Shown one piece after another: positions 1,987-20,582 of a stretch of DNA of 58,704 bases. The stretch is from a virus: positions 1 through 58,704 of IMG/VR virus record IMGVR_UViG_3300035494_000106; one strand, 5' to 3'. The notes under the pieces were generated by a model. The model ran no database searches. It saw only the letters and a list, made by a program, of their open reading frames with translations, and had not been told where the DNA came from. Positions within the stretch are counted from its first letter, which is position 1. Each line of letters opens with the position of its first letter. The translations under genes and the position numbers were made by a program.

Positions 1987-2616
1987 ATGATCATGCCTGA
2001 GACACGGGAAATAACCATATACCAGTTCGACGAGCTGAGCGACAAAGCCAAGGAGAAAGCCCGCGAGTGGTACCGCAACGGCCAGCTCGACTACGACTGG
2101 TGGGAGGCCGTCTACGACGACGCCGACAAGATCGCCTCGATCATCGGCATCGACATTGACCGCAAAGACAAGAACACGCCGGCGATCTACTTCAGCGGGT
2201 TCTCGAGTCAGGGCGACGGCGCCTGCTTCGAAGGCTCGTACCGTTACAAGAAGGGCTGGCGTAAAGAGCTGGCCGAGTACGCTCCGCGGATCGGGACCAA
2301 CGCCGACATCTGGCAAATCGCCGAAGCGCTACAAGCCATCCAGGCGCGCCAGTTCTACAAGCTGGAGGCAACCTGCTGGCAGCACGGCCACTACCGGCAC
2401 AGCGGCGGCATGAGCGTCGACGTGGAGCACGCTGACGACCGCTACCGCGACATTGGCGACGCCGAGGACGAGATTCGAGACCAGCTCCGACTATTCGCCG
2501 ACTGGATCTACGGCCGCCTCGAGCAGGAGCACGACTGGCTGACAAGCGACGAGCAGGTCGACGAGGCGATCCGCGCCAACGAATACGAATTTCTCGAAAA
2601 CGGGAGCCTAGCATGA
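1987..2616 (+). CDS. Conserved phage/plasmid-type protein of unknown function
   Basis: GGAGGG RBS; start at ATG 1987 or 1993. Motifs YQFDELSDKAKEKAREWY and FSGFSSQGDGACFEG. The family name is not verifiable here. Confidence 0.7.
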   Translation: MIMPETREITIYQFDELSDKAKEKAREWYRNGQLDYDWWEAVYDDADKIASIIGIDIDRKDKNTPAIYFSGFSSQGDGACFEGSYRYKKGWRKELAEYAPRIGTNADIWQIAEALQAIQARQFYKLEATCWQHGHYRHSGGMSVDVEHADDRYRDIGDAEDEIRDQLRLFADWIYGRLEQEHDWLTSDEQVDEAIRANEYEFLENGSLA

Positions 2617-3002
2617 TCGAAATGAAGACGAGCGAGCTGATTGGGCCGGCGCTGGATTGGGCGGTGGCTATGTCTGAAGGCGCCACCAACCTGTACTTCG
2701 ATACGGTGGCGTGCTGGTGGTTCACCCTCAATGGGGCGGACCGGGTACTGAGTAGCGGCTGGTCAGAGAAGCAGAACTACTGCCCATCGACCGACTGGCG
2801 CTACGGCGGGCCGCTGCTCAAACCGAACCGGATCAGCCTGACGCAAAAGCACTCCGGCTGGGTAATCGCGTGCATCTACGACTCCAATGATGAGCCTACC
2901 CATATGCAACTGGCAGAAGACCCTCTGATCGCCGCCATGCGCTGCCTTTGTGCATCCAAGCTGGGCGACACGGTGCAGGTGCCACAGGAGCTGCTGCCAT
3001 GA
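2613..3002 (+). CDS. DUF2591 (NinX-like) family protein, paralogue A
   Basis: N-terminal ELIGPALDWAVAMSEG is typical of DUF2591 as I recall it. ATGA coupling on both sides. Confidence 0.75.
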   Translation: MIEMKTSELIGPALDWAVAMSEGATNLYFDTVACWWFTLNGADRVLSSGWSEKQNYCPSTDWRYGGPLLKPNRISLTQKHSGWVIACIYDSNDEPTHMQLAEDPLIAAMRCLCASKLGDTVQVPQELLP

Positions 3003-3346
3003 CCACCAAACCAACACACACCACCGTGCGCCGGCGGCACTCCGTCGGCGCCCGCAGAGCTCTGGACAAGGCCAAGCGCGAGCAGCTGGAACGCGAACTG
3101 GCCGACGCACTGGCATCACTGGACACACCAGCCGGCAAGGTCGGACTCCCTAAAGTAGGGAAGCCCCGGATCGTCGTCACGCTGACCGTTCGGCTACTCA
3201 ACGAAGGCGGGCTGCCTCGGCGGTTCGAGTGGACTGCGCCTCCCGGCACGTGGCCGGCTGAGGCCGTCCATCTGGCGAAGTTGGCAGCCCGTAAGGCCGG
3301 GTTCGTCGTCCACGCCCACATCGACACCGAGGAGCGAGTCCTATGA
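2999..3346 (+). CDS. Hypothetical protein (115 aa)
   Basis: ATG 2999 overlaps the stop at 3000-3002. Contains palindromic box 5. Confidence 0.65.
   Translation: MTTKPTHTTVRRRHSVGARRALDKAKREQLERELADALASLDTPAGKVGLPKVGKPRIVVTLTVRLLNEGGLPRRFEWTAPPGTWPAEAVHLAKLAARKAGFVVHAHIDTEERVL
3146..3162. promoter_or_regulatory. Palindromic box 5, CTCCCTAAAGTAGGGAA (inside ORF 2999-3346)
   Basis: The only copy that is fully intragenic; it encodes LPKVGK. Confidence 0.5.
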
Positions 3347-3744
3347 CCAGCATCGAAGTGAAAACCGCCGACCTGATCGGGCCGGCGCTGGACTGGGCGG
3401 TGGCCATGGCCGAGGGTGCGAAGCCTGAGAGGCCACATGACGGTCAAGTAAGTTTCGGCAGCGTCCATCTGCTATGCGGCAGTGATCAGGAGCGTGGATT
3501 TCACGCCCCGTTCTACTCGCCGTCCACCGACTGGAGCCAGGGCGGGCCGCTGATTGCGCGAGAGCGCATCGGACTGTGGCCCACTTCCAATGGCTATTTT
3601 GCTGAGAAGCGACACTTCGGTCGCCATCACAAGGCAGGGCGCAGTTACGGCGAAGGCCCCACATCCTTGATCGCCGCCATGCGCTGCCTCGTCGCCGCCA
3701 AGCTGGGCGACACGGTGCAGGTGCCCGAGGAGCTGCTGCCATGA
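3343..3744 (+). CDS. DUF2591 (NinX-like) family protein, paralogue B
   Basis: DLIGPALDWAVAMAEG plus a C-terminus nearly identical to paralogue A (AAMRCL..KLGDTVQVP.ELLP). Confidence 0.75.
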   Translation: MTSIEVKTADLIGPALDWAVAMAEGAKPERPHDGQVSFGSVHLLCGSDQERGFHAPFYSPSTDWSQGGPLIARERIGLWPTSNGYFAEKRHFGRHHKAGRSYGEGPTSLIAAMRCLVAAKLGDTVQVPEELLP

Positions 3745-3947
3745 TCGCCGCCCTGCTGATGTACGTCTGCGCCAGCACCGTGCTGGACAGTTGCGAGGTG
3801 TTCGTCGACCGCACGTGGGAAGGCCCGGCAGCTGCCGCAGAGTGTGAGGACTACCTGCGTCGGACCCGGAACAAGGTGCCGCTGCTCTACCGCCAGCGCG
3901 GCGAGCACGTGCTTTACGTCTGTGACGTGCAATCGGTTGGAGAATAG
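3741..3947 (+). CDS. Hypothetical protein (68 aa)
   Basis: ATGA coupling at 3741; a hairpin follows the gene. Confidence 0.6.
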   Translation: MIAALLMYVCASTVLDSCEVFVDRTWEGPAAAAECEDYLRRTRNKVPLLYRQRGEHVLYVCDVQSVGE

Positions 3948-3960
3948 TTGCCTCGAACCG

Positions 3961-3983
3961 CAGGGCCAGGCATACTGGCCCTG
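3961..3983 (+). terminator. Hairpin terminator candidate after gene 3741-3947
   Basis: cagggccag-gcata-ctggccctg, a 9-bp perfect stem 14 nt after the stop. The downstream U-tract is poor. Confidence 0.4.
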
Positions 3984-4037
3984 TAAGTTCAGTTTACAGA
4001 GGGCTTACCGGCAAGCACGGGCTTGCCAGTGCGCCTT

Positions 4038-4054
4038 CTCCCTACTTTAGGGAA
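4038..4054. promoter_or_regulatory. Palindromic box 6, CTCCCTACTTTAGGGAA
   Basis: 33 nt upstream of ATG 4087. The centre is the complement of boxes 5/7/9. Confidence 0.7.
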
Positions 4055-4086
4055 CGCACAGCCTCAACTTTTCAGGAGACACCATC

Positions 4087-4569
4087 ATGCGCAAAATCAC
4101 CGAAGCCGCCATTCAGGCGTTCCTCGCCGGCGAGGAGTTCAGCCGCGACAACACTCGTGTCGAGGTCCGTCCGTTCAAGGGCGAACTCGGGGACCAAGTC
4201 ATTCTGGTTCTGCACGGGAACCCGATCGCTGCCTACCTCGAGGACGTTGGACCGACCAGCCTGCGGGTGTGCGACGGCAACCACCAGACCCGCACCACGA
4301 AGGAGCGCCTCAACGGCCTGCCCGGCGTACAGGTACACCAGAAAGCCGGCCAGTGGTACCTCAACGGCACGGCGTGGGACGGCAGCTGGACCCACGTCGG
4401 CGGGGTGATGATCATCAAGCGTGTTGGCGACCGCCGCTACCGCGTCGAGTACCCGCGCAGCGCCGCTCGGGAGCCGATGGTGTTCCCCAGCCGCAAGGCC
4501 GCCCGCGTGTTCGCCGAGGTGGAAGCCGCAAACCACGGGTACGACCTGATCGCCGAGGCCGAAGCATGA
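4087..4569 (+). CDS. Hypothetical protein (160 aa); the C-terminus carries an FPSxxAAxxFAEVE motif
   Basis: Consensus leader caacttttcAGGAGacaccatcATG. Distant member of the small-paralogue family. Confidence 0.8.
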   Translation: MRKITEAAIQAFLAGEEFSRDNTRVEVRPFKGELGDQVILVLHGNPIAAYLEDVGPTSLRVCDGNHQTRTTKERLNGLPGVQVHQKAGQWYLNGTAWDGSWTHVGGVMIIKRVGDRRYRVEYPRSAAREPMVFPSRKAARVFAEVEAANHGYDLIAEAEA

Positions 4570-4820
4570 ACGCCAAGCTGGAACACCTGCAGAAGCGCGA
4601 GATAGCGCGGGCGATCGCGCAGGTAGAAAAAGCCACGGGTCGGGGCGCTATTGCGGAAGCCGTGCAGTACGCAGGCCAGCTGATACACCAGGAAAACAAA
4701 CGCTCGGACCGCACGCTGGGCGCGGCCATGCAGAAAGCCTTGGCCGAGCGCGAAGACCTGCTGGAGCTGATGCGCCAGCTGAACGACGCGACGCGCAAGA
4801 AGATTGACTCCCTAAAGTAG
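4566..4820 (+). CDS. Hypothetical coiled-coil protein (84 aa)
   Basis: ATGA coupling at 4566; the stop lies inside box 7. Confidence 0.7.
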   Translation: MNAKLEHLQKREIARAIAQVEKATGRGAIAEAVQYAGQLIHQENKRSDRTLGAAMQKALAEREDLLELMRQLNDATRKKIDSLK

Positions 4821-4824
4821 GGAA
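4808..4824. promoter_or_regulatory. Palindromic box 7, CTCCCTAAAGTAGGGAA
   Basis: Contains the TAG stop (4818-4820) of ORF 4566-4820; 12 nt upstream of ATG 4836. Confidence 0.6.
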
Positions 4825-4835
4825 TGGAGCCGACA

Positions 4836-5387
4836 ATGACCGAACAAGCCGAACAGAACGCCCCGGGAATCAGCAGCGAGGAGCTGGCACGCCTGACCGC
4901 CGAGTTCCTCAACCGTGGGTGCCAGATCGCCGTCTGTGCGCAGGGAGAGACCGCCCTGCCCTACGGCGTCGCCGCCGCACGCAAAACCGAGACCGCCGCG
5001 CGCAACGCCCGCACAGAGGGGCTGCGCCGCAAGGCCGAGAAGGCCGACGCGCTGGACGTGGAAGCGATCCGCAAGGCGCTGGACGCCGACGACAAGTCGC
5101 TGATGCCGAGGATATCCAACGAACGCCTCAAGCGGTTGGTACACGCCTATTTCAAGGACGACGCCCGGGCGCAGGCGCTACTGCCGGTGAACCGTACGGT
5201 CGCAGCCGAGCGCCGAGCGCAGGAAGCGATCAAGCGAATCGTGGCGCTGCGCGACAGCGGCATGGTGGGGATCAAGAGCATCGCCGCCGCGCTCGACCTA
5301 CAGTACGACTACGTGGCCAAGCTGAACACCCAGCACCAGCTGGGAATCATGAAGGCTTCGCCCGGATTCAGGAGCAAGAAGGCATGA
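4836..5387 (+). CDS. Hypothetical protein (183 aa)
   Basis: GGAG at 4826-4829, 6 nt before ATG 4836. The ORF track offers an alternative ATG at 4824. Confidence 0.75.
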   Translation: MTEQAEQNAPGISSEELARLTAEFLNRGCQIAVCAQGETALPYGVAAARKTETAARNARTEGLRRKAEKADALDVEAIRKALDADDKSLMPRISNERLKRLVHAYFKDDARAQALLPVNRTVAAERRAQEAIKRIVALRDSGMVGIKSIAAALDLQYDYVAKLNTQHQLGIMKASPGFRSKKA

Positions 5388-5647
5388 TCACTCGAACCTC
5401 ATTCAACAAGCGATTGCTGGATAACATCGGCGAAGCCATGCGCGTGGCTGCCTACAACTCGCGGATGTGGTCGGCTGCTGCCGGCTGCGCCTCGAAGGGC
5501 ACGGCCTACGTGCCGAACGCCAGGGGCCGCCTGATGATGCGCGTGGACCACGCCCGGGGAGAGCCGCAGGCGTTCCAGTTTTACGACAAGCACCAGCGCA
5601 ACATCACCAGCATGGTGCTCGAAGCGCTGCGCCGGGGGCGACCATGA
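5384..5647 (+). CDS. Hypothetical protein (87 aa)
   Basis: ATGA coupling at 5384. This is the coding-like part of ORF 4919-5647. Confidence 0.65.
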   Translation: MITRTSFNKRLLDNIGEAMRVAAYNSRMWSAAAGCASKGTAYVPNARGRLMMRVDHARGEPQAFQFYDKHQRNITSMVLEALRRGRP

Positions 5648-5979
5648 CCCCGCTCCAGCGCTGGGCGGTATCGAACGCGTTCGCCCGCGCGCTGGTGATC
5701 ACGTGGAGTTGCGCGCCGTTCGGACCGATCAAGTTCGTCAAGTGGTTCATCCGCTGGAAGTCGTTGGGACGGGTGGCCGTCGACCTGAACTTGGCGTGCG
5801 ACAAGCCATCCGACGCTGGCTACCTGTTCGCCCCGCGCATGGTCGAAGTGTACGGGTACGAGCGAGCTCGGCGGGTGGCTCTCGCCACGGTGAGGATCGA
5901 AGGCAACATAGCGGCTGGGCACCCGTTCGACTTGGGCGTGCTGATGTGGTTCGTCCACCACGCCCGGGCGGTGATGTGA
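5644..5979 (+). CDS. Hypothetical protein (111 aa)
   Basis: ATGA coupling at 5644. Confidence 0.65.
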   Translation: MTPLQRWAVSNAFARALVITWSCAPFGPIKFVKWFIRWKSLGRVAVDLNLACDKPSDAGYLFAPRMVEVYGYERARRVALATVRIEGNIAAGHPFDLGVLMWFVHHARAVM

Positions 5980-6296
5980 TGGCCTACGCAACGGCCGACA
6001 TGGCCGCCCGGCTGTTCGAGCTCGGGTTCTCCAGTATGCGGATCGGCCTGGACCGCGAGGAGGGGTTCTGCAGGCTACGCAACGGCCGGACGGAGACGAT
6101 CATCTACACCTGGGACAAGCGCGACCGGACCTCGCTCGAGGTGCCGCCTGCCGAGGAGGTGTTCTGGGTCGCCAGTTCGGCCGGCGTGTCGAAGGCCGGC
6201 GGGCTCGAGGTGGTCGTGCCGGCCAGTGAGCGGTGCCCGGACCCGGTGACCTGTTTTGTAAGTGCGGAGGTGCGAGGATGGAAACGCCAGACCTGA
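5979..6296 (+). CDS. Hypothetical protein (105 aa)
   Basis: TGATG coupling at 5977-5981. Confidence 0.6.
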   Translation: MAYATADMAARLFELGFSSMRIGLDREEGFCRLRNGRTETIIYTWDKRDRTSLEVPPAEEVFWVASSAGVSKAGGLEVVVPASERCPDPVTCFVSAEVRGWKRQT

Positions 6297-6574
6297 TGCC
6301 GCCCGGCTGGGAGCGTGGGGACCGTGGGCTGACCACCTGCGCGCACGACTTGGTGTGGACCCGGCGCGACAGCAGCCTGAGCAAGATGGTGCAGCGGGTG
6401 CAGTTCGACTTGCACCAGGGTGGGTACGTGTTCGGCGTGGTCGGCGTAGACGCGACTTATAGTCGACCTCGGCCGAACGTTGCGCCCGCCACCTACAGGT
6501 TCAACCCAATGTCACCAGTGTTCCCTTCGCCGCAAGCAGCAGCTGTGTGGGCCACGATCGAGGGGCTGACATGA
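6278..6574 (+). CDS. Small paralogue-family protein (98 aa)
   Basis: N-terminal PPGWERGD; C-terminal VFPSPQAAAVWATIEG. Confidence 0.65.
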   Translation: METPDLMPPGWERGDRGLTTCAHDLVWTRRDSSLSKMVQRVQFDLHQGGYVFGVVGVDATYSRPRPNVAPATYRFNPMSPVFPSPQAAAVWATIEGLT

Positions 6575-6630
6575 GCAGGGGACAGCAGCCCACGACACCG
6601 TTCGGCGGCTGACAACCAGTTGGAGATTGC

Positions 6631-6657
6631 TTGCTACCGCCGTGGGTAGTGTAAACT
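6631..6657 (+). promoter_or_regulatory. Promoter candidate with a TGTAAACT box (-10-like TAAACT at 6652-6657)
   Basis: TTGCTA (6631-6636) lies 15 nt upstream, or CTTGCT at 16 nt. Intergenic, upstream of the MoxR gene. Confidence 0.35.
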
Positions 6658-6689
6658 AGGCTTACATTTTCAGTAACACCAACCGCAAC

Positions 6690-6706
6690 TTCCCTACTCT
6701 AGGGAA
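6690..6706. promoter_or_regulatory. Palindromic box 8, TTCCCTACTCTAGGGAA
   Basis: 28 nt upstream of ATG 6734 and downstream of the TGTAAACT box at 6650-6657. Confidence 0.7.
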
Positions 6707-6733
6707 TCAACCAACGATGTTCAGGAGAACACC

Positions 6734-7894
6734 ATGAAAGTCAACGACCTGACCGCTATCACCGTCGCCCTCTACAACGCGAACCGCACCGGCATGTACT
6801 GGGGTTCGCCAGGCATCGGCAAGTCGGACAGCTTCCGCGCCGCCGCTGAGCAGATCAAGAACTCGCTGGGCCTGACTGGTCCGGTGCTCGAGCGTCACCA
6901 GATCAAGCCGTTCCTCGCACGTGGTGGCGATATCCGCACGACCTTCGGCCTGTTCGACCTGCGCCTGTCGCAGATGGACCCGGTGGAAGTGGGCGGCCTG
7001 CCGCGCGAGAACCGCACCAATGGCACGATGGAGAAGCTGCCGCCAAGCTGGTTCGCCCACACCCTGCGCGACGACCTGCCTGACTTCGGCATCCTGCTGC
7101 TGGAGGAGCTGCCGTCCGCACCAATGAGCGTGCAGACCGCGGCGTACCAGATCACCCTGGACAAGGTGATCGAGGACTACAAGTTGAAGGAAGGCTGGGC
7201 CACGTTCGCTGCGGGCAACCGCCTGACCGACGGCGGCCAGTACTTCAAGATGCCGAACGCATTGGCCAACCGCCTGTGCCACATCGACGTCGAGTCGGAC
7301 GTGGACAGCTGGCGCCAGTGGGCACTGGAACACAACATCGACCATAGCCTGATCGCGTTCATCAGCTTCCGCTCGGACCTGCTGAACACCACCGAGGACC
7401 ACGTGAAGAACAAGGGCAAGGGCTTTGCCTTCGCCACCGAGCGCCAGTGGGCTGCGGTCAACGACTTCCTGACCAACAACCCAGGCGCCGACGCGTCGGT
7501 GATGCACGCTGTGGTGAGCGGCCTGGTGGGCTCCGGCCCGGCCGCCGAGTACATCGGGTTCCGTGACGTGTGGAACAACATGCCGAGCATCGACGGCATC
7601 CTGATCGAGCCGGACACTGCGATCCTGCCTGAGGACGCGGCCACCCAGTTCGCCGTGATGACTGCGCTGGCGGCACGTGCGACCTATGACAACCTCGCCC
7701 AGTGCCTGCGCTACACCGACCGTCTGATGGCCAAGGGTCGCCCGGAGATGGCCGTGCTGTTCATCAAGGACATGCAGATTCGCCAGAACCTGGCATTCGA
7801 ACAGGCCAAGGCAGAGGGCCGGGCGTTCCAGCGCGCTGAGGCGTCGCCGGCGTACACGATGTGGGCCTCGCGCAACGTCCAGCTGTTTGGCTGA
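6734..7894 (+). CDS. MoxR-type AAA+ ATPase
   Basis: Walker A GSPGIGKS and Walker B ILLLEEL. Consensus leader ttcAGGAGaacaccATG. Paired with a downstream VWA protein. Confidence 0.9.
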   Translation: MKVNDLTAITVALYNANRTGMYWGSPGIGKSDSFRAAAEQIKNSLGLTGPVLERHQIKPFLARGGDIRTTFGLFDLRLSQMDPVEVGGLPRENRTNGTMEKLPPSWFAHTLRDDLPDFGILLLEELPSAPMSVQTAAYQITLDKVIEDYKLKEGWATFAAGNRLTDGGQYFKMPNALANRLCHIDVESDVDSWRQWALEHNIDHSLIAFISFRSDLLNTTEDHVKNKGKGFAFATERQWAAVNDFLTNNPGADASVMHAVVSGLVGSGPAAEYIGFRDVWNNMPSIDGILIEPDTAILPEDAATQFAVMTALAARATYDNLAQCLRYTDRLMAKGRPEMAVLFIKDMQIRQNLAFEQAKAEGRAFQRAEASPAYTMWASRNVQLFG

Positions 7895-8199
7895 TGGCCA
7901 GCGAGCGGAAGAAGCGGGCCAAGCAAATGGCCCGCCTCGGCTGGGTGTGGGAGCCGAGCTGGAACAGCTGGGTATTCTTCGACCTGTGGTCCAACCCGGC
8001 AGCGTACATCCAGTATCGGGCGGGACAGAAAGACTGGCAGCTTGGCGAGGTGTTGCACCCTGACGGGGTTCCTGAGTGGGGCGAGGCGTTCGGCAGTCCC
8101 CTGGCCGCAGCTGTATTCGCTGAAGTGCAGCTCGCCGACAGGCTGGCCGCCGTGCGGAAGGAGATTGAGGGCTGCAACAGGGAGCGCATTGGACTATGA
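7894..8199 (+). CDS. Small paralogue-family protein (101 aa)
   Basis: TGATG coupling. LGWVWEPS ... EAFGSPLAAAVFAEVQ. Confidence 0.7.
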   Translation: MASERKKRAKQMARLGWVWEPSWNSWVFFDLWSNPAAYIQYRAGQKDWQLGEVLHPDGVPEWGEAFGSPLAAAVFAEVQLADRLAAVRKEIEGCNRERIGL

Positions 8200-8570
8200 A
8201 CGCCCAAAAAACACCGACCCAACTTCGCCGTGAGCACGAAGCCCGCACCGGAATGCGGGCGAACATGAGAACGTTCGGGTTCGAGGCGGTCAAGTACCGC
8301 CTCACTGGTGAGCCGACACGGTTCCGTGAGCAGACGGCGCGGGGCGAAGGAGGGTTCTTCATCCAGCGCACAATAGACAACATGTGGCGCATCGGCTGGC
8401 AGTCCGGCCGGCCGGTAGTCGGGGTCAAGGGAGGGCAGTGGTACCCCGAGCGCCCAGTCGAGTCACCATTATTTCCCGGGCCAGTAGCCGCAGCGCTGTG
8501 GTTCGAGGTGGAGAAATCAAATGGAACGATCCGTTTTAGACAGAGCCAAGACGCAGCTCGTACTCAATGA
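8196..8570 (+). CDS. Small paralogue-family protein (124 aa)
   Basis: ATGA coupling. ...GGQWYPERPVESPLFPGPVAAALWFEVE. The tail overlaps the VWA gene start by 50 nt. Confidence 0.65.
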   Translation: MNAQKTPTQLRREHEARTGMRANMRTFGFEAVKYRLTGEPTRFREQTARGEGGFFIQRTIDNMWRIGWQSGRPVVGVKGGQWYPERPVESPLFPGPVAAALWFEVEKSNGTIRFRQSQDAARTQ

Positions 8571-9723
8571 GCCGTTCTACGCCACGATTCTACTCAAGCT
8601 GGAACTGGTTGAGTGTGAGTCGGTGCCGGGGCTCGGCCCGCTGTGGCTGGCTGCCACCGACGGGCAGCACCTGTTCGTCAACCCGAAGAACTTCGAGCAG
8701 CTGTCCGTGGCCAAGGCCAAGGGCGTGCTCAAGCACGAGGTGATGCACGTCGCCCAGCTCCACCCGTTCCGCGGGCAGGGCAAGGAGCAGGTGCGCTGGA
8801 ACAAGGCGACCGACGACGTGATCAACCCGATGATCATCGACGAGGGCGGCGAACTACCTGACGGCGTGCGCTCCGGTGTGCGCGGCATGTCAGCCGAGGA
8901 GCGTTACAAAGACCTGCCGCCTGAGCCGCCGGGACAGGGAGGTGGCGGCTCTGGTCCGCACGACCCGCTGGGGCACGACGTCCTGCCGGCGCCGGACAAG
9001 AGCCAGGCTGCGGTGGACAAGACCAAGGCGATGATCGCCCAGGCTGCGTCGGTAGCGAAGGCACGCGGCAAGCTGCCCGAGTCGCTGCGCTCGGAGATCG
9101 ACAAGGTGCTCAAGCCCCGCGTCGACTGGAAGGAGCAGCTGCGCCAGTGGCTGACCGAGGCGTCGCAGGCGGACTACTCGTTCCGCCGACCGAACCGTCG
9201 CTTCATCACCGGCGACGATCCGATCTACCTGCCGTCGATGATGGGTGACAACCAGGCGATGGACACGCTGGTCGTGGTGCTGGATACCTCTGGCTCCATC
9301 ACGATGGCTGAGCTGTCGCAGGGGCTGGGCGAAATCTGCGGCGCCGTGGCTGACGTGTCTCCGAAGCGGTTGGTGGTAGCCTACTGCGACGCAAAGGTGC
9401 AGCACCACGACGTGTTCGACCAGCCGCAGGGTGCAGAGGTAGCCAAGTCGTTCGAGCACCACGACGTGTTCGACCAGCCGCAGGGTGCAGAGGTAGCCAA
9501 GTCGTTCGAGCGCCACGGCGCGGGCGGCACGAACATGGTGGCGGCCCTCAAGTGGGTCAACCGCAACTACCCGACGGCCAAGGGGGTGATCGTCTGGACC
9601 GACGGCGAGACTCCGTTCGGCAACGAGGAGGACTACGAGTACCCCGTGCTGTGGGCGATTACCTCCCCTCGTATCGAAGCGGACTGGGGGACAACGCTGC
9701 ACGTTGTCGTCGGCGATGACTAA
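8521..9723 (+). CDS. Metallopeptidase-like (HExxH) + von Willebrand A domain protein (DUF2201-type partner of MoxR)
   Basis: HEVMH zinc motif, MIDAS-like VVVLDTSGS and GGTN. Contains the 54-bp duplication. Confidence 0.9.
   Translation: MERSVLDRAKTQLVLNEPFYATILLKLELVECESVPGLGPLWLAATDGQHLFVNPKNFEQLSVAKAKGVLKHEVMHVAQLHPFRGQGKEQVRWNKATDDVINPMIIDEGGELPDGVRSGVRGMSAEERYKDLPPEPPGQGGGGSGPHDPLGHDVLPAPDKSQAAVDKTKAMIAQAASVAKARGKLPESLRSEIDKVLKPRVDWKEQLRQWLTEASQADYSFRRPNRRFITGDDPIYLPSMMGDNQAMDTLVVVLDTSGSITMAELSQGLGEICGAVADVSPKRLVVAYCDAKVQHHDVFDQPQGAEVAKSFEHHDVFDQPQGAEVAKSFERHGAGGTNMVAALKWVNRNYPTAKGVIVWTDGETPFGNEEDYEYPVLWAITSPRIEADWGTTLHVVVGDD
9403..9510 (+). repeat. Perfect 54-bp tandem duplication (x2), in frame within the VWA gene
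   Basis: 9403-9456 = 9457-9510. Encodes HHDVFDQPQGAEVAKSFE twice. Confidence 0.95.
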
Positions 9724-10006
9724 GTGGCAGCCGCTGCACTCGGCGTTCCCAGGTGATACGGCGCAGGTGCTCAAGTACCTGCTGCCGAACACGCTGGTGA
9801 ACGCCACGGCGGTTGCGAACGCGCCAACCCACGACGATCCGCTGGGTACAAAGCCGAAGCTGACGGCGGCATACAGGCCGAGCTTGTCCGGGGCGCCGAG
9901 ACTGCAGTTCAAGGTGTTCGACAGGCATACGCCAGAGCTCGAGCCCGAGGCGATGGAGGTGTACCTGTACGTCGAGTGGCCAGAGGTATTCAGGAGGGCG
10001 CCATGA
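9716..10006 (+). CDS. Hypothetical protein (96 aa)
   Basis: ATG 9716 overlaps the VWA stop. The ORF track offers a TTG start at 9704. Confidence 0.55.
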   Translation: MTKWQPLHSAFPGDTAQVLKYLLPNTLVNATAVANAPTHDDPLGTKPKLTAAYRPSLSGAPRLQFKVFDRHTPELEPEAMEVYLYVEWPEVFRRAP

Positions 10007-10269
10007 TCGCCGGCTGGGTGGCCCTCAAGGAAGGGTACTGCCGGGCCAAGCTGGAAGTCGGCGCCAATGGGCGGCCGCACATACCGAAGTTCGACCGGAT
10101 GCACGCGCCGCACGTCATGCCTGACAGCTGGGGTGGTGGATGGGTAGCCCTCGACGGTTCGCCGGAGGCCAGGCCATTCCCCAACCGACTGGTGGAGGGC
10201 GTGGTGTTTCCCACAGCAGAGGCTGCGATGGTCGCGGCCGAGGTAGAACTTGCCAATCGGCAACCATAG
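10003..10269 (+). CDS. Small paralogue-family protein (88 aa)
   Basis: AGGAGGG RBS and ATGA coupling. IAGWVALKEG ... VVFPTAEAAMVAAEVE. Confidence 0.7.
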   Translation: MIAGWVALKEGYCRAKLEVGANGRPHIPKFDRMHAPHVMPDSWGGGWVALDGSPEARPFPNRLVEGVVFPTAEAAMVAAEVELANRQP

Positions 10270-10277
10270 TGTAAACT
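10250..10277 (+). promoter_or_regulatory. sigma70-like promoter candidate, TTGCCA-N16-TAAACT
   Basis: -35 at 10250-10255 and -10 at 10272-10277, preceded by TG. Upstream of gene 10330. Confidence 0.5.
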
Positions 10278-10286
10278 CGGTATACA

Positions 10287-10303
10287 TTCCCTAAAGTAGG
10301 GAG
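10287..10303. promoter_or_regulatory. Palindromic box 9, TTCCCTAAAGTAGGGAG
   Basis: 27 nt upstream of ATG 10330. Begins about 10 nt after the -10-like TAAACT at 10272-10277. Confidence 0.7.
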
Positions 10304-10329
10304 TAGCCGCAACTTTTCAGGAGTAAGAC

Positions 10330-11202
10330 ATGAACGCATACGACACTTCGAACATCCATGCCCGTGTGATGTTGGTCAATCTGAACATCGCTCAGTGGTC
10401 GGCCCGCAAGATCGACAAGCGCGCCTCAGCCGAGGTGGCTGCGGCCAACAAGGCAGAGTCCCGCAACGGCGCGTACTACAAGTCATTAGTAGAAGGCGGC
10501 TCGCTCGAGAAGATCAAGCGCCTGGTCACCCAAGCCCGCGCCGAGCACTACCACCGCACTCTGCCATGGTCTGACGCCGGGCCCCGCGTGTTGGCGAACA
10601 CTGGCTACCTCGAGTACGCCCAGAAGATGGGCGAGTTCGGGCAGCAGTTCGACAGCCTGGTCGCTCAGTTCCTCAAGGAGTACCCGCTGATGAAGCAGGA
10701 GGCCAAGCGCCTGCTGGGCAACCTGTTCGACGAAGCGGACTACCCGGACCTGCAGCGTGTCGCCGACAAGTTCTCGTTCAAGACCAGTGTGACGCCGCTG
10801 CCGATCGGCGACGACTTCCGCTGCGACCTGGGCCAGGAAGAAGTCGACCGCATCCGCGCAGAGATCACGGCCACCACGACCAGCGCTGTGCAGCAGGCGG
10901 TGACCGAGGCGTACGAGCGGATCAGCAAGGTGGTCGACTCGTACATCGACCGGCTGGCCGGCGCCGAGACTGTGTTCCGCGACAGCCTGGTGGGCAACGC
11001 CCGCGATCTGGTGGATATCCTGCCGTCGCTGAACATCACGAACGATCCGAAGCTGGCCGAGCTGACCAGCCGACTGCAGAGCAAGCTGTGCGCCCACGAC
11101 CCGGACGCTCTGCGCAACAACCAAACCGTGCGCAAGGCCACCTATGAGGAGGCCGTGTCGATGCGCAAAGACCTGCTGGATTTCTTTGGGGGTGCGATGT
11201 GA
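10330..11202 (+). CDS. DUF3150-like protein (290 aa)
   Basis: Consensus leader caacttttcAGGAGtaagacATG. The family assignment is from memory of N-terminal LNI.QWSARK-type proteins that accompany MoxR/VWA pairs. Confidence 0.75.
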   Translation: MNAYDTSNIHARVMLVNLNIAQWSARKIDKRASAEVAAANKAESRNGAYYKSLVEGGSLEKIKRLVTQARAEHYHRTLPWSDAGPRVLANTGYLEYAQKMGEFGQQFDSLVAQFLKEYPLMKQEAKRLLGNLFDEADYPDLQRVADKFSFKTSVTPLPIGDDFRCDLGQEEVDRIRAEITATTTSAVQQAVTEAYERISKVVDSYIDRLAGAETVFRDSLVGNARDLVDILPSLNITNDPKLAELTSRLQSKLCAHDPDALRNNQTVRKATYEEAVSMRKDLLDFFGGAM

Positions 11203-11892: not shown

Positions 11893-12177
11893 GTGCGCCG
11901 GAGGCTCAGCAAACAGCACTGCCGGTGCACCTCGAAGACGAAGTGCGGCCGGCGGTTCAAGGGGTTCCCGGGCGTGACGCCTTGCCCTCACTGCGGAGCC
12001 GCCGGCAGGTTGGACAAGTGGGCGGACAAGAAGCCCTGGAAGAAACGCGACAGGCTCTGCTACTGCAGCGCCTATGAATGGGGCGCGTACGGGTCGCCGC
12101 ACCGTGAGGGGTACGGCGCCTGCTACTACGCACCGAGGAGGGACGATGACACCCAAGAAACCGATGCTGGCGTGTGA
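11893..12177 (+). CDS. Cys-rich putative zinc-ribbon protein (94 aa)
   Basis: CRC..KC and CPHC pairs, GC-rich third codon positions, GTG start. Overlaps the ligase start by 32 nt. Confidence 0.5.
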   Translation: MRRRLSKQHCRCTSKTKCGRRFKGFPGVTPCPHCGAAGRLDKWADKKPWKKRDRLCYCSAYEWGAYGSPHREGYGACYYAPRRDDDTQETDAGV

Positions 12178-15245: not shown

Positions 15246-16400
15246 ATGAGCAAGATTGCAGACGAGCTACACGCAGCATCCCGACCCCTGTTTGAGGCGA
15301 TCGCCGCCATCATCGAGGGCAAGAGTACGTCGGCACCCCAGCCGCAGCCGGACCCCCAGCCAGAGCCGCGCAAGCGGGGCGTCATGGGGCTGAACCTGGG
15401 TATGGGGGCTGGAGCCGAAGGGTTCCTGCCTGGCACGCAGGGGCAGCATTACATGCTGCCGGTGGAGTCGGAGATCAAGCGGGCCGTCGAGCAGTACGGC
15501 GTGAAGCGGTTCAGGATCGGTGGGCTGTGGGAGCGGTGCATCAAGCCCGGCGGCAAGTCGGAGGTGTACCTAGGGCACGATCCGCAGGGCAAGCCGTACA
15601 CCCTGACGCAGGCGCTGCAGGTGGGGCGCTGGTGCAAGAAGTATGGGGCCACGATCCTCTGGGACTTAATGCACAACTACGGCGGCTACAGCAGCACCGG
15701 CAGTGGGGCGCAGCGCAAGAAGGTAGGTGCCACTGGCGGACCAAGCACCAAGCTGTTCGCCAAAGACTGGGCGGCCATCATCAAGGTGCTGCGCTCCGAC
15801 CCGGATTGTTGGGAGGCGACGTACGGGATCGACACTATGAACGAGTGGGTAGGCGTCAGCCACGCCACCGTGTTCGACGCGGCGCAGCAGTTCCTCGACG
15901 AGTGCGCCCCGCTGCTGGACAAGAAGATGGCGGTGTTCGAGGGTGCGGACTGGTCCAGCACAATCAACTGGGTCAAGAACAATCCCGACTACCACAAGCT
16001 GAAAGACCCGCGCGGTCCTGGGCTGGTCGAGTTCTCCGGCCACCTGTACCTCGACCAGAACGCCGGCGGTGGGTATGACACCGGCGACACGATCAGCGCG
16101 CAGGAGATGGCGGCGGGCGCGACGTTCGAGAACATCGGCGTCAAGCGGGCCGAGTCGTTCTTCAACTGGTTGGAGAAGAACGGGGTGAAGGGCAGCATCG
16201 GCGAGACGATTGTGCCTGGCGATTTCCCCGGGCTGTTGAAGGGCATGGACAACCTGATCCGCGAGGCGCTGGACCGCGGAGTCGACGTCTACGTGTTCGG
16301 GATGGGCGACTGGTTCGGCAAGACCGCGCACCACAACGTCGAGAGCGCACGCAACAAGAACATGCTGGAGCTGGTTAAGACCCACGCGAAGGCGAGTTGA
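15246..16400 (+). CDS. Glycoside hydrolase family 5-like (clan GH-A TIM barrel) enzyme
   Basis: The ordered signature fits GH5: LWDLMHNY, TMNEW (acid/base NE), GHLYLD (HxY), SIGETIV (nucleophile GE), GDWFG. Has an N-terminal PQPQPDPQPEP linker and no obvious signal peptide. Confidence 0.75.
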   Translation: MSKIADELHAASRPLFEAIAAIIEGKSTSAPQPQPDPQPEPRKRGVMGLNLGMGAGAEGFLPGTQGQHYMLPVESEIKRAVEQYGVKRFRIGGLWERCIKPGGKSEVYLGHDPQGKPYTLTQALQVGRWCKKYGATILWDLMHNYGGYSSTGSGAQRKKVGATGGPSTKLFAKDWAAIIKVLRSDPDCWEATYGIDTMNEWVGVSHATVFDAAQQFLDECAPLLDKKMAVFEGADWSSTINWVKNNPDYHKLKDPRGPGLVEFSGHLYLDQNAGGGYDTGDTISAQEMAAGATFENIGVKRAESFFNWLEKNGVKGSIGETIVPGDFPGLLKGMDNLIREALDRGVDVYVFGMGDWFGKTAHHNVESARNKNMLELVKTHAKAS

Positions 16401-18601: not shown

Positions 18602-18769
18602 ATGGTAGTGGACATGAAGAAAGCCCGGCTCCGTGCCGGGCTGATGAAGGCGGCCGACACAGCCACACAGCTGGCCAACTTGGTGAAGTCGCCGGCCGAC
18701 CGGGCGCGGCTCAAGGCCAAGGCCGAGCGCCTGGCCAAGCGTGCAGAGGAGCTGCCGACATGCGGATGA
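18602..18769 (+). CDS. Small basic helical protein (55 aa; below the ORF-track cut-off)
   Basis: GGGGGTG RBS before ATG 18602 and GC-rich third codon positions. Overlaps the next gene start. Confidence 0.5.
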   Translation: MVVDMKKARLRAGLMKAADTATQLANLVKSPADRARLKAKAERLAKRAEELPTCG

Positions 18770-19857
18770 TCATTGCAGGGTCTCGCGGGATCGACAGCTC
18801 GGCTGACTACGTGCGGCTGAAGAACGCGGTGATGAAGTTCCCCATGCCGACGGAGATCATCAGTGGCGGGGCCAAGGGGCCGGACCAGATGGGCGAGCGT
18901 ATCGCCGCCGAGTTCGGCATCCCGGTCAAGCAGTTCATCCCGAAGTGGCAGAACCCCGACGGCTCGACCAACAAGGGCGCCGGCTTCATCCGCAACGGCG
19001 ACATGGCTGTGTACGCCAGCGAGGTGGAAGGTAGCGTGCTGGTGGCGATGTGGGACGGCGTCAGCCGTGGCACGGCGCAGATGATCGAAGTGGCCAAGAA
19101 CTACGGGCTGACCGTCGAGGTGGTTCACCCGATGGCTGGCATCCTCAAGGACGCCACGCCGGCGGAGCCGTATATCTTCCCACAGTCGCACTCGTCGCTG
19201 AGCGTGTTCGAGACCTGCCCGCGCCAGTACGAAGCCAAGTACATCACCCGCGAGGTCAAGTTCCAGCAGGGCGCAGCCGCTGCCTGGGGCGACAAGGTGC
19301 ACCTGGCGCTGGAAGGGTACCTGCTCAGTCAGGGTGCGCAGGCGCTGCCGCCGGAGATGGCACAGTACCAGGGGCTTGGGCAGTGGGTACTCCAGCGGGC
19401 GCAGCAGAACGGCGGCATCATCCACGTGGAGCGCAAGGCCGGGGTCAAGAAGGACCGGACCGCCAGCGCCTACGGCGCCAAGGGGAACTGGTTGCAGGGC
19501 AAGATCGACGTCACGATCGTCTACCCGCACCTTGCCAGCGCCGAGGTATTCGACTGGAAGACCAACGAGAAGATCAAGAACGACGCGACCCAGCTGAAGA
19601 TGTACAACGGGTTCACGCTCGCTGGCTTCCCTGAGGTCGAGGTGGTACGCAGCGGCTACGTGTGGCTCAAGCATGGGCAGATCGCCCCGCCGCTGGCCAC
19701 GTCGCGCGACGGCATCGACGATATCTGGGCCGTGTTCCAGCAGAAGTACGACCGCCTGCGCGACGCGTACATGCGAGGTACGTTCCCAGAGCGGCCGAAC
19801 GGACTGTGCAAGAAGTACTGCGACGTGCTGTCCTGCCCGCACAACGGGAGGAAGTAG
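18760..19857 (+). CDS. Fusion of a SLOG/DUF2493 (YspA-like) domain with a Cas4-like PD-(D/E)XK nuclease
   Basis: N-terminal MIIAGSRG..ISGGAKGPDQ..WDGVSRGT. C-terminal FETCPRQY, IDV...FDWKT, QLKMY and CKKYCDVLSCP (4-Cys cluster). Only the part from 18760 onward is taken from ORF 17710-19857. Confidence 0.85.
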   Translation: MRMIIAGSRGIDSSADYVRLKNAVMKFPMPTEIISGGAKGPDQMGERIAAEFGIPVKQFIPKWQNPDGSTNKGAGFIRNGDMAVYASEVEGSVLVAMWDGVSRGTAQMIEVAKNYGLTVEVVHPMAGILKDATPAEPYIFPQSHSSLSVFETCPRQYEAKYITREVKFQQGAAAAWGDKVHLALEGYLLSQGAQALPPEMAQYQGLGQWVLQRAQQNGGIIHVERKAGVKKDRTASAYGAKGNWLQGKIDVTIVYPHLASAEVFDWKTNEKIKNDATQLKMYNGFTLAGFPEVEVVRSGYVWLKHGQIAPPLATSRDGIDDIWAVFQQKYDRLRDAYMRGTFPERPNGLCKKYCDVLSCPHNGRK

Positions 19858-19859
19858 CC

Positions 19860-20099
19860 ATGGCGTCCGCACCGAGGGGGTGGACGGAGGAGCAGGCCAG
19901 GGCAGCGGTGCAGTTGGGGTTCACGTTCCCATTCGGCAGTCAAGCTAGGAGCGGGTTCGGCAACGCAGTGGCGGTACGTGGGAGGCACCGGGTGTACCCA
20001 CGGCTGGACCTGACTGTCGGCGGCCAGACGATGTTCGAGCCGTACACCGCAGGCCCGAATAGAAACGACGGGTGGGCGAAGCGTGGGTGCCCGAGGTGA
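19860..20099 (+). CDS. Small paralogue-family protein; the C-terminal motif is displaced into the -1 frame
   Basis: GGGAGGAAG RBS. N-terminal APRGWTEEQ. The family motif VTFPTPEAAVVWADIEG is encoded at 20096-20146 in another frame. Confidence 0.55.
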   Translation: MASAPRGWTEEQARAAVQLGFTFPFGSQARSGFGNAVAVRGRHRVYPRLDLTVGGQTMFEPYTAGPNRNDGWAKRGCPR

Positions 20100-20153
20100 C
20101 GTTCCCTACGCCGGAGGCCGCCGTGGTCTGGGCAGACATAGAGGGGTGGGGCA

Positions 20154-20582
20154 GTGGCACAAACTCCTGAGGGTAAGGTAAAGGACAAGGCCCGTGCGCT
20201 GTACAAGCAGCACGGTGCCAAGTACGACCGGGCCGCCATGACGGGGATGGGGCAGAACGGGCGGGCAGACGATCTGGTCTGCCGCAGCCCGGACGGCCAC
20301 TTCGGCGGCGTGGAGTTCAAGCGCGACAACGTGTTCAAGGTCAGTGCCCTGCAGCGCGTATGGCTGCAGGAGACGGAGCGCTGCGGCGGCAGCAGTATGG
20401 TGGTGAACCTCACCAACCTGACAATGCTCGAGCAGTGGCTCAAGGCGCCAGGCTGGCGGGTCAACGCGGTGTTCGAGAAGGACACTTGCGTCGGCCACGT
20501 GGCCAGAGCCACCGGGCACGAGGACGTGTTCATTAAAAACCCCGACGCGAAGTCGGGGAAAGACAGAGCATCACGGGCGTAG
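20154..20582 (+). CDS. VRR-NUC domain nuclease
   Basis: GRADDLVCRSPDGHFGGVEFKR fits the PD-(D/E)xK core of VRR-NUC. GTG start after GAGGGG. Confidence 0.8.
   Translation: MAQTPEGKVKDKARALYKQHGAKYDRAAMTGMGQNGRADDLVCRSPDGHFGGVEFKRDNVFKVSALQRVWLQETERCGGSSMVVNLTNLTMLEQWLKAPGWRVNAVFEKDTCVGHVARATGHEDVFIKNPDAKSGKDRASRA

Follow-up and report, generated by a model that had tools for sequence, protein, structure and literature searches.

A lineage-specific family of small alpha/beta-domain proteins around an N4 gp24/gp25-like ATPase and VWA/metallopeptidase gene pair in a phage early region

To our knowledge, no role has been established for the two-gene phage module of the N4 gp24/gp25 type, on which no functional study was found in the literature searched. 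In the Schitoviridae, the module is found, for instance, in Pseudomonas phage YH6 (KM974184) as the pair phrog_1297 and phrog_1314, with the domains DUF2201_N and DUF2201. In bacteria, MoxR-vWA ternary conflict systems possess a third component (VMAP, iSTAND) and small DUF397 genes in multiple copies; their alpha+beta VMAP-C domain has 7 strands and 6-7 helices (Kaur, Burroughs, Iyer and Aravind 2020, PMC7159879) and is far larger than the domain described below. Here, we analysed a stretch of viral DNA of 58,704 nt (IMG/VR record IMGVR_UViG_3300035494_000106, positions 1 to 58,704; termed the window), in which an N4-like ATPase/VWA gene pair is accompanied by short open reading frames (ORFs) ending in a common motif. 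An original prediction, made from the letters of the window, had taken these for small paralogous proteins. The ORFs constitute one lineage-specific multigene family on a single small alpha/beta domain of ~85-100 aa, and its members may serve as a diversifying scaffold for host interaction, with one member, D, as the fixed partner of the ATPase/VWA machine.

The six motif-bearing peptides of the original prediction were all recovered at their coordinates on the + strand. Six-frame translation of the window yielded 1,170 ORFs (>=25 aa), and the motif F-[PG]-x-x-x-A-A-x-[VL]-[WFA]-x-x-[VI]-[EQ] was found at the C-terminal end of six + strand ORFs, termed A (4087-4569), B (6278-6574), C (7894-8199), D (8196-8570), E (10003-10269) and F (19860-20171). 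The pattern F-[PG]-[STG]-[PAR]-x-A-A-x-[VL]-[WFA]-[AF]-x-[VI]-[EQ] gave exactly 6 matches in the six-frame translation (4483-4524, 6521-6562, 8089-8130, 8472-8513, 10207-10248 and 20102-20143, for A to F) and none in 100 shuffles. This count is circular, the pattern having been written from the six copies themselves, and leave-one-out tests were therefore run. Using motif hidden Markov models (HMMs) trained on five copies, the left-out copy ranked 6th of the 1,170 window ORFs, right behind the training five, with E-values of 3.8e-8 to 1.2e-3 (8.1e-8 for E and 1.6e-5 for A), whereas the best non-member among the other 1,164 ORFs had E >= 0.033. Since the composition correction of HMMER was active, Ala-richness alone fails to account for this result; the alignment and HMM comparison proposed with the original prediction thus came out in favour of a similarity beyond Ala-rich bias. 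The window-trained motif HMM also picked up copies on which it had not been trained in the related contigs L001-L009.

Pairwise BLASTP among the window members aligned only 15-28 C-terminal residues, which is why a "motif" had been perceived at first reading. A full-length family HMM matched untrained members across nearly the whole model length, as seen for the locus ORFs L004_237 (E 3e-8), L006_952 (7e-7), L004_25 (8e-7), L002_9544 (5e-6), L002_7551 (5e-6) and L003_6437 (3e-5). Members were clustered into orthologous subfamilies, and these were compared profile to profile with hhalign, by which B, C, D, E and F were joined over 35-83 columns. The pairs (with probability and aligned columns) were B-c11 (93.5%, 83), B-C (92%, 47), D-C (89%, 45), MFPL-c10 (86%, 79), F-L2x3 (85%, 75), F-E (83%, 35) and c7-L4s (82%, 65). 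Some pairs connected via the motif alone, namely D-B over 17 and F-B over 16 columns. Together with the matching predicted topologies of D and B described below, the leave-one-out tests, full-length matches and profile links bear out the earlier claim of paralogues sharing one small fold.

Alignment of the members from the window and the related loci revealed a common architecture of an N-terminal helix ending in L-x3-G-[FWY], strands, a conserved Trp, a Pro loop and the motif. The domain consists of the N-terminal helix running to G-[WFY], an antiparallel beta-meander of 4-5 strands with conserved R and W, the Pro loop and a C-terminal amphipathic helix. Signature columns were computed over 90 weighted sequences. 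At the end of helix 1, a G (86%) is followed by W/F/Y (100%), a column pair that confirms the N-proximal G-W of the original prediction; an aromatic residue in strand 1 and an R/K (74%) follow, and the strand Trp (95%), which lies outside the motif, is the family's most invariant residue after the initiator Met column. In the motif helix, the columns are A 79%, A 55%, V 50%, W/F/Y 87%, V/I 89% and E 83%. An AlphaFold2 (AF2) model of D from a 28-row family alignment had a mean predicted local distance difference test score (pLDDT) of 78.2 and a predicted template modelling score (pTM) of 0.69, with helices (H) and strands (E) at H7-26, E29-33, E40-45, E52-58, E64-70, E85-88 and H96-109. The motif helix was its best-predicted part, with 10-residue blocks at pLDDT 91 and values of ~90 for residues 91-110. 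The model of B, from a 19-row alignment (pLDDT 67.7, pTM 0.61), contained five strands and a helix at H85-95, and both models have a common core of meander plus C-terminal helix.

The motif, accordingly, comprises the C-terminal amphipathic helix, its N-cap ([STDG]-P) and the last core residue (F) of the preceding strand. Conserved positions of the helix are spaced i, i+1, i+3, i+4, i+7, i+8. Such spacing is the signature of a buried helix face, and [STDG]-P is a typical helix N-cap; we infer that the motif follows this scheme. With the motif as an integral helix, its conservation would be mainly structural, and on the predicted models it appears to be part of the globular fold rather than a free docking peptide.

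A working definition of the family was drawn up as G-[WFY] after helix 1, the strand Trp and F-x-[STDG]-P-x-A-A-x-V-[WFY]-x-x-[VI]-E in the C-terminal helix, all of which are present in B, C, D, E and intact orthologues of F. Member B (98 aa) has a start agreeing with the identical database gene call P0001, naturally comes without helix 1, and has only 3 other homologues among 5.8e9 proteins. Member C (101 aa; start as in database gene call P0010) begins where the ATPase gene stops, its own stop overlaps the start of D, and its orthologues follow the ATPase in L003, L004 and L033; its profile links to B and D span 45-47 columns. Member D (124 aa), the core subfamily and, with 24 sequences, the largest subfamily cluster, overlaps the start of the VWA gene by 50 nt. 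It is the only strongly basic member, with an isoelectric point (pI) of 11.0, most others having a pI of 4.5-6.7. Member E (88 aa) has orthologues in L001 and L003 that are 64-69% identical.

Member A, the ORF closed by a more distant motif copy in the original prediction, is a fusion. Residues 1-94 match Pfam PF23790 (Kyano_Gp96; E 4.3e-13, 49.8 bits against a cut-off of 27; profile positions 1-92 of 110) and phrog_554 (E 6.3e-18), whereas residues ~94-155, with the motif, align to positions 26-95 of 100 of the family HMM, without helix 1 and without the G-[WFY] step. The likeness to Kyano_Gp96, although above the gathering threshold, is confined to this N-terminal domain, to which the motif-bearing module has been added; B to G are without similarity to it. 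The extension is retained in the L001 and L003 orthologues, and the Gp96 homologue of the more distant locus L031, at 107 aa, is too short to contain it.

A divergent seventh copy, G (5979-6296, + strand), was missed at first reading. It is located just upstream of B, sharing one base of its start with the stop of the upstream ORF and overlapping B at its end, and reads MAYATADMAARLFELGF...ERCPDPVTCFVSAEVRGWKRQT, with the N-terminal helix ...AARLFELGF and the family architecture including a degenerate helix CPDPVTCFVSAEVRGW. An HMM built without G-type sequences scored G only at E 0.2, though over its full length, and its best hhalign link was 26%. Orthologues occupy the same position in L001 and L003, and intermediate forms in L031 (FQDPVTALVTAEVRGWRAQ) and L033 match the family HMM at 2e-5 to 4e-5. 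G is probably a family member. The 100-aa ORF H (9704-10006, + strand), between the VWA gene and E, is a candidate only. Its C-terminus is motif-like (LEPEAMEVYLYVEWPEVF), conforming with a loose version of the family helix only, and its orthologues follow the VWA gene in six related loci. The best hhalign link was 30%, to C over 44 columns, and no family-HMM match was obtained in the window at E <= 1; tried as an eighth member, H was left unassigned. Of the four members that the original prediction had placed directly beside the ATPase and VWA genes, B, C and D do flank them, whereas E is separated by H.

Copy F had been described as displaced into another frame from 19860 onward, and the displacement is real. 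The frame 0 ORF ends after 79 aa at a TGA (20097-20099), while the remainder, with the motif (20102-20143) and the rest of the domain intact, continues in the -1 frame to 20171. Intact orthologues (P0053-P0059) have 100-103 aa and are 91-43% identical. Compared with L039, the F DNA is 97% identical with one 1-nt gap, the window having GGG (20074-20076) for GGGG in the intact gene, so that one G was lost. At least 10 contigs encode the truncated product without any difference, and 5 independent assemblies from different projects agree in every base of the 312-nt F region; the frameshift is therefore a genuine allele and not a one-off assembly error. Programmed frameshifting appears less likely: no X_XXY_YYZ slippery heptamer was seen at the shift site by sequence inspection, and comparison with an intact orthologue revealed a simple 1-nt deletion. 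As judged from the sequence, the simplest reading of F would be a very recent pseudogene. Directly upstream of F, at 18760-19857, a YspA/SLOG-like domain is fused to a PD-(D/E)XK nuclease, and the position after this gene is a recurrent insertion site of family members (L012, L013, L039). L012 and L013 have intact members there, and L011, the closest IMG/VR relative at this position (nuclease 86% identical), has unrelated DNA with another gene instead. Elsewhere in the replication module, a glycosyl hydrolase family 5 (cellulase-like) gene (15246-16400; Pfam E 3.1e-9) lies between the exonuclease and DNA polymerase A genes, in the same place as in L039.

To find relatives of the locus, the ATPase served as an anchor. 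It led to two IMG/VR loci and seven metagenome loci with ATPases 61-85% identical (L001-L009), and further syntenic contigs (L031, L033 and L039) were found via protein look-ups. Scanning IMG/VR more widely with an ATPase profile added no contig to the two already found there, no relative of the ATPase was present in 185,579 bacterial and archaeal genomes, and megablast of the window region against 50,697 GenBank phage records yielded no near-identical record. The loci have a common gene order of small genes, ATPase, (C-type), D-type, DUF2201 metallopeptidase/VWA and small genes, continuing with a ~290-aa protein, a ligase, an Rv2179c-like exonuclease, DNA polymerase A, the SLOG/PD-(D/E)XK nuclease and an SNF2 helicase. 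With the family profile, 21 of 5.8 billion proteins were matched at E <= 10, and none of them had a Pfam domain or a telling name. Exhaustive scanning of 1.84 billion representatives with HMMER gave 34 matches at E <= 1e-3. Two of these, the giant proteins P0031 and P0039, were discarded on inspection as repetitive Ala-rich false positives, leaving about 32 clusters, and the family matches were all in one syntenic phage lineage. The phages carrying the family form a rare, coherent lineage.

Copy number was 7 in the window, ~11 in L003, at least 6 in L002/L005, ~8 in L031 and ~13 in L033. Arrays of copies precede the ATPase and follow the VWA gene; lone copies lie after the ligase (L033) or the nuclease (window F, L012 and L013), and L031 also has copies at 11955 and 12218, away from the ATPase/VWA pair. 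In the leftmost 10 kb of the window, the genes sit close together in overlapping blocks on the + strand, and stray ones are found in the replication module. Identity of the window copies to their L001/L003 orthologues is 39-72%, compared with 85% for the ATPase; non-D copies are gained and lost between loci and diverge faster than the ATPase. These data, including the gene turnover and the fresh frameshift of F, substantiate the repeated diversification proposed originally. The D-type alone is fixed, with gene boundaries overlapping those of its neighbours. In all 9 distinct loci covering the interval, it separates the ATPase (or C) from the VWA gene; it was seen there in the window, L001, L002/L005, L003, L004, L006, L007, L008, L031 and L033. 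A further subfamily, beginning MKKPWEKGYIP..., has no window counterpart; it was seen at L001 13022-13759, L003 10206-10844 and L033 6697-7104, as the domain plus a C-terminal extension of 60-100 aa. Its member P0025 is named "Terminase" in UniRef, a name without support in this analysis: the gene of P0025 is one of the small ones that follow the VWA gene, and no database family match was recorded for it.

The ATPase (6734-7894, + strand) is a P-loop protein with the Walker A sequence GSPGIGKS that matches phrog_1297 ("ATPase", E 2e-79) and is 28% identical to the "N4 gp24-like" ATPases of Pseudomonas Litunavirus phages. The label "MoxR" given to it originally could not be verified, as it has no Pfam match at E <= 10 and no match in the PDB by sequence or by a 6-member profile, its only matches there being to the PHROG and to N4 gp24-like proteins; the pairing with a VWA gene is MoxR-like but does not in itself establish it as a MoxR AAA+ protein. 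Its N4 gp25-like partner (8521-9723, + strand) is a DUF2201_N metallopeptidase plus VWA-like protein, according to Pfam (PF13203, E 4.8e-43, 148.2 bits against a cut-off of 23.2; DUF2201, PF09967, E 5.7e-15, 56 bits against 26.4). The translation contains the zinc-peptidase motif HEVMH (HExxH), and the residues of the metal ion-dependent adhesion site (MIDAS), DTSGS...GGT...TDG, are intact. A 54-bp tandem duplication (9401-9517; 2.2 copies, 98% identical) inside this gene duplicates HHDVFDQPQGAEVAKSFE, 18 aa, in frame; it looks window-specific, because the orthologues in L001, L031 and L033 have 381-386 aa compared with 400 aa here.

Phage YH6 has the same two-gene module, likewise with an ORF between the two genes, but at 28% identity, and its intervening unannotated ORF of 186 aa is not matched by the family HMM. 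The family HMM was also used to look for a member between the two genes of this N4-like phage, and it found none anywhere in the 9 kb locus. The MoxR-vWA ternary systems may be regarded as the nearest conceptual analogue of D, ATPase and VWA. Likeness consists in the ATPase plus VWA pair, a dedicated syntenic third gene (here the D-type), small multi-copy genes and diversifying components. The order, however, is VMAP-MoxR-vWA there and ATPase-(C)-D-VWA here; those systems serve cellular defence, whereas the present one is of a phage; no similarity in sequence or fold was found; and the ATPase here is unverified as MoxR. No VMAP-C-like protein was found near the ATPase, where the neighbours have 84-187 aa and no VMAP-type Pfam domain, the comparison being an indirect one with the description in PMC7159879.

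From this genomic pattern, we propose, with a probability of somewhat less than one half (about 0.45), that the paralogues are a diversifying scaffold for host interaction and that D is a fixed partner of the ATPase/VWA machine. The conserved scaffold would present variable strands and loops, and the paralogues would act as small protein-binding modules, each engaging a different host or phage target in host takeover or counter-defence. The basic D-type would be the exception, probably serving the N4 gp24/gp25-like machine as its own third subunit, be it adaptor, substrate or regulator. Such a scaffold would explain why the copies are many and diverge fast, why close relatives gain and lose them and why one occasionally decays into a pseudogene. 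Strict synteny ties only the D-type and, more weakly, the C-type to the ATPase/VWA pair. Several points weigh against the proposal. The host-interaction role is derived from the pattern alone. Strong basicity is confined to D, the majority of copies being near-neutral or acidic, and a single function for all copies is not assured; the YH6 pair exists without a detectable family member, implying that the family is not generally required by the machine. As to the unity of the family, G, A and H tie to it only via the motif region plus the architecture, and the hhalign links of G and H are weak, the subfamily alignments being shallow. Finally, the agreement in topology between D and B is not independent because the two AF2 runs share alignment rows, and the model of B is of moderate confidence only.

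The alternative raised in the original prediction, that the motif is a shared short docking peptide, linear or helical, through which otherwise unrelated small proteins bind one partner, appears unlikely, though not negligible. The partner might be the MIDAS site of the VWA protein, reached via the conserved Glu, or a host protein, and the paralogues would be alternative adaptors or substrates of the ATPase/VWA/metallopeptidase machine. Consistent with this, a near-invariant acidic residue ends the motif, the VWA protein retains both its MIDAS and its HExxH residues, the ATPase and VWA genes have B, C and D as neighbours, D being strictly syntenic between them, A looks like a Gp96-like domain that gained the module, and the bacterial MoxR-vWA systems have dedicated third components (PMC7159879). 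The motif is also the sole alignable part in some pairs, D-B and F-B; several others, however, are homologous over most of their length. Docking is further disfavoured by the prediction of the motif as an integral helix of the globular model with the highest pLDDT, by the buried-face periodicity and the helix N-cap at its conserved positions, by the location of the best-conserved residue, the strand Trp, outside the motif, and by the copies lying far from the ATPase/VWA pair, after the nuclease (F), after the ligase (L033) and at 11955 and 12218 of L031. It retains some weight because the Glu is conserved, the MIDAS is intact and some pairs resemble each other in the motif only. In an elaboration that we consider a long shot, the array would supply the phage ATPase/VWA/zinc-peptidase machine with specificity adaptors that can replace one another, or with decoy substrates: the C-terminal helix would dock with its Glu ligating the MIDAS, the variable face of the beta-sheet would capture different host proteins, for example a defence component, for ATP-driven remodelling or proteolysis, and D would be the constitutive adaptor.

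It is rather improbable that the paralogues are small nucleic-acid-binding regulators tuning early or middle expression, for example near the palindrome TCCCTA-NNN-TAGGGA. Nine perfect copies of this palindrome, compared with 0.04 expected by chance, are all located in the first 10.3 kb of the window, the region of the family array (124-138, 786-800, 1455-1469, 1906-1920, 3147-3161, 4039-4053, 4809-4823, 6691-6705 and 10288-10302). D, at pI 11, has a basic N-terminal helix, the N-terminus of C is basic as well, and PUR/Whirly-like folds of beta-sheet plus helix are among the weak fold matches. Against such a role, most members are neutral to acidic, no helix-turn-helix, ribbon-helix-helix or other DNA-binding family was recurrently detected, and the fold matches are at TM (template modelling) scores <= 0.38 and E >= 0.09.

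The palindromes may have a role of their own. At the four positions where flanks were read (4039, 4809, 6691 and 10288), they lie ~1-35 nt upstream of a gene start, and those at 4039, 6691 and 10288 are followed by a conserved sequence ending in ttcaggag that looks like a ribosome-binding site; TAGTGTAAACTnGGnnTACAT precedes the palindrome at about 6648 and 10268. They are candidates for a phage promoter, operator or hairpin that would partition the early region; scanning 3700-10500 for promoter and terminator consensus sequences gave background levels. Upstream of the family array, two paralogous NinX-like genes (2613-3002 and 3343-3744; Phage_P22_NinX, E 5.5e-16 and 6.8e-18) are located ~340 nt apart. 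An early protein of 187 aa (4824-5387) has a sub-threshold Pfam match to the RNA-polymerase-binding SutA (E 0.0042, 16.8 bits against a cut-off of 29.3), which may hint, by sequence resemblance, at a function directed at the host RNA polymerase in the same early block.

Returning to the family, which we read as a scaffold for host interaction, the original prediction had not recognised its motif as a described domain, and the database comparisons agree. B-F gave no Pfam match at E <= 10 and no PHROGs match at E <= 1, G had no Pfam or PHROG match, no Pfam or PHROG family was matched by more than one of 29 family members, and NCBIfam had no match to the family. Searching PDB sequences with the 29-member profile returned, at best, E 0.83, from Ala-rich helices of unrelated enzymes. 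With a fold match defined as Foldseek E < 1e-3 and TM > 0.5, neither model had one: for D, the best values were E 0.78 with TM <= 0.29 in the PDB, and E 0.089 with a TM score for the query (TMq) <= 0.38 in BFVD; for B, they were E 0.35 with TMq <= 0.38 in the PDB. The initial leads AP2/integrase-type, DUF2188 and HicA/HicB-like were dropped, as no Pfam family was recurrent at E <= 10 in the 29 members; the aromatic residue of the AP2 consensus also seems to have an offset unlike that of the motif. No description of the family was found in the literature searched. The family is, therefore, undescribed and genuinely new to the databases searched, while falling in a familiar category, that of lineage-specific small paralogue families in phage early regions.

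A known alpha-beta-alpha fold might have diverged into the domain, UBC/RWD-like (E2-like) and dsRBD/HicA-like folds being examples, and the family would then have an explanation in principle; we rate this as improbable. The topology of an N-terminal helix, a 4-strand meander and a helix is similar, an aromatic-Pro step (YP, FP, HP) precedes the motif in several members, and the top fold matches of B, though non-significant, were the Atg3/Atg10 E2-like proteins (E 0.35, TM 0.33-0.38). Yet no Foldseek match in PDB or BFVD had E < 0.08 or TM > 0.4 with either model, E2/RWD proteins were not returned by the search with D, Pfam at E <= 10 gave singletons at most for the 29 members, and no catalytic Cys or HPN motif is conserved. 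For UBC/RWD-like (Atg3/Atg10), dsRBD/HicA-like and PUR/Whirly-like folds, all among the top non-significant Foldseek matches, the likeness is one of secondary-structure order; they differ by TM <= 0.38 and E >= 0.35 in the PDB, by the lack of a sequence-profile match and by the lack of shared functional residues. The E2-like, PAS, levivirus-coat and Pur-alpha fold matches were all discarded as noise level, and the resemblance to UBC/RWD-like or dsRBD/HicA-like folds is a lead, not a result. That the family is a product of chance or of composition in a 64% GC, Ala-rich genome, as the two giant repetitive proteins of the representative scan and the weak Ala-rich matches in the PDB might suggest, has next to no probability and is refuted by the leave-one-out ranks and E-values, the position of every copy on the coding strand at an ORF C-terminus, the retention of copies in orthologues on contigs with ATPases 61-85% identical, and the conserved positions outside the motif.

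At least, a new domain family with a clear signature is available for database curation, and a naturally frameshifted allele with identical sequence in several independent assemblies is documented. If the scaffold reading is true, the family would be a compact, evolvable binding scaffold, multiplied to ~13 per genome, and a place to seek anti-defence or host-takeover activities; the D-type partner would provide the first experimental handle on a widespread, functionally obscure ATPase/VWA-metallopeptidase module. Should the adaptor reading apply instead, the N4 gp24/gp25-type module would be a retargetable counter-defence protease of phages.

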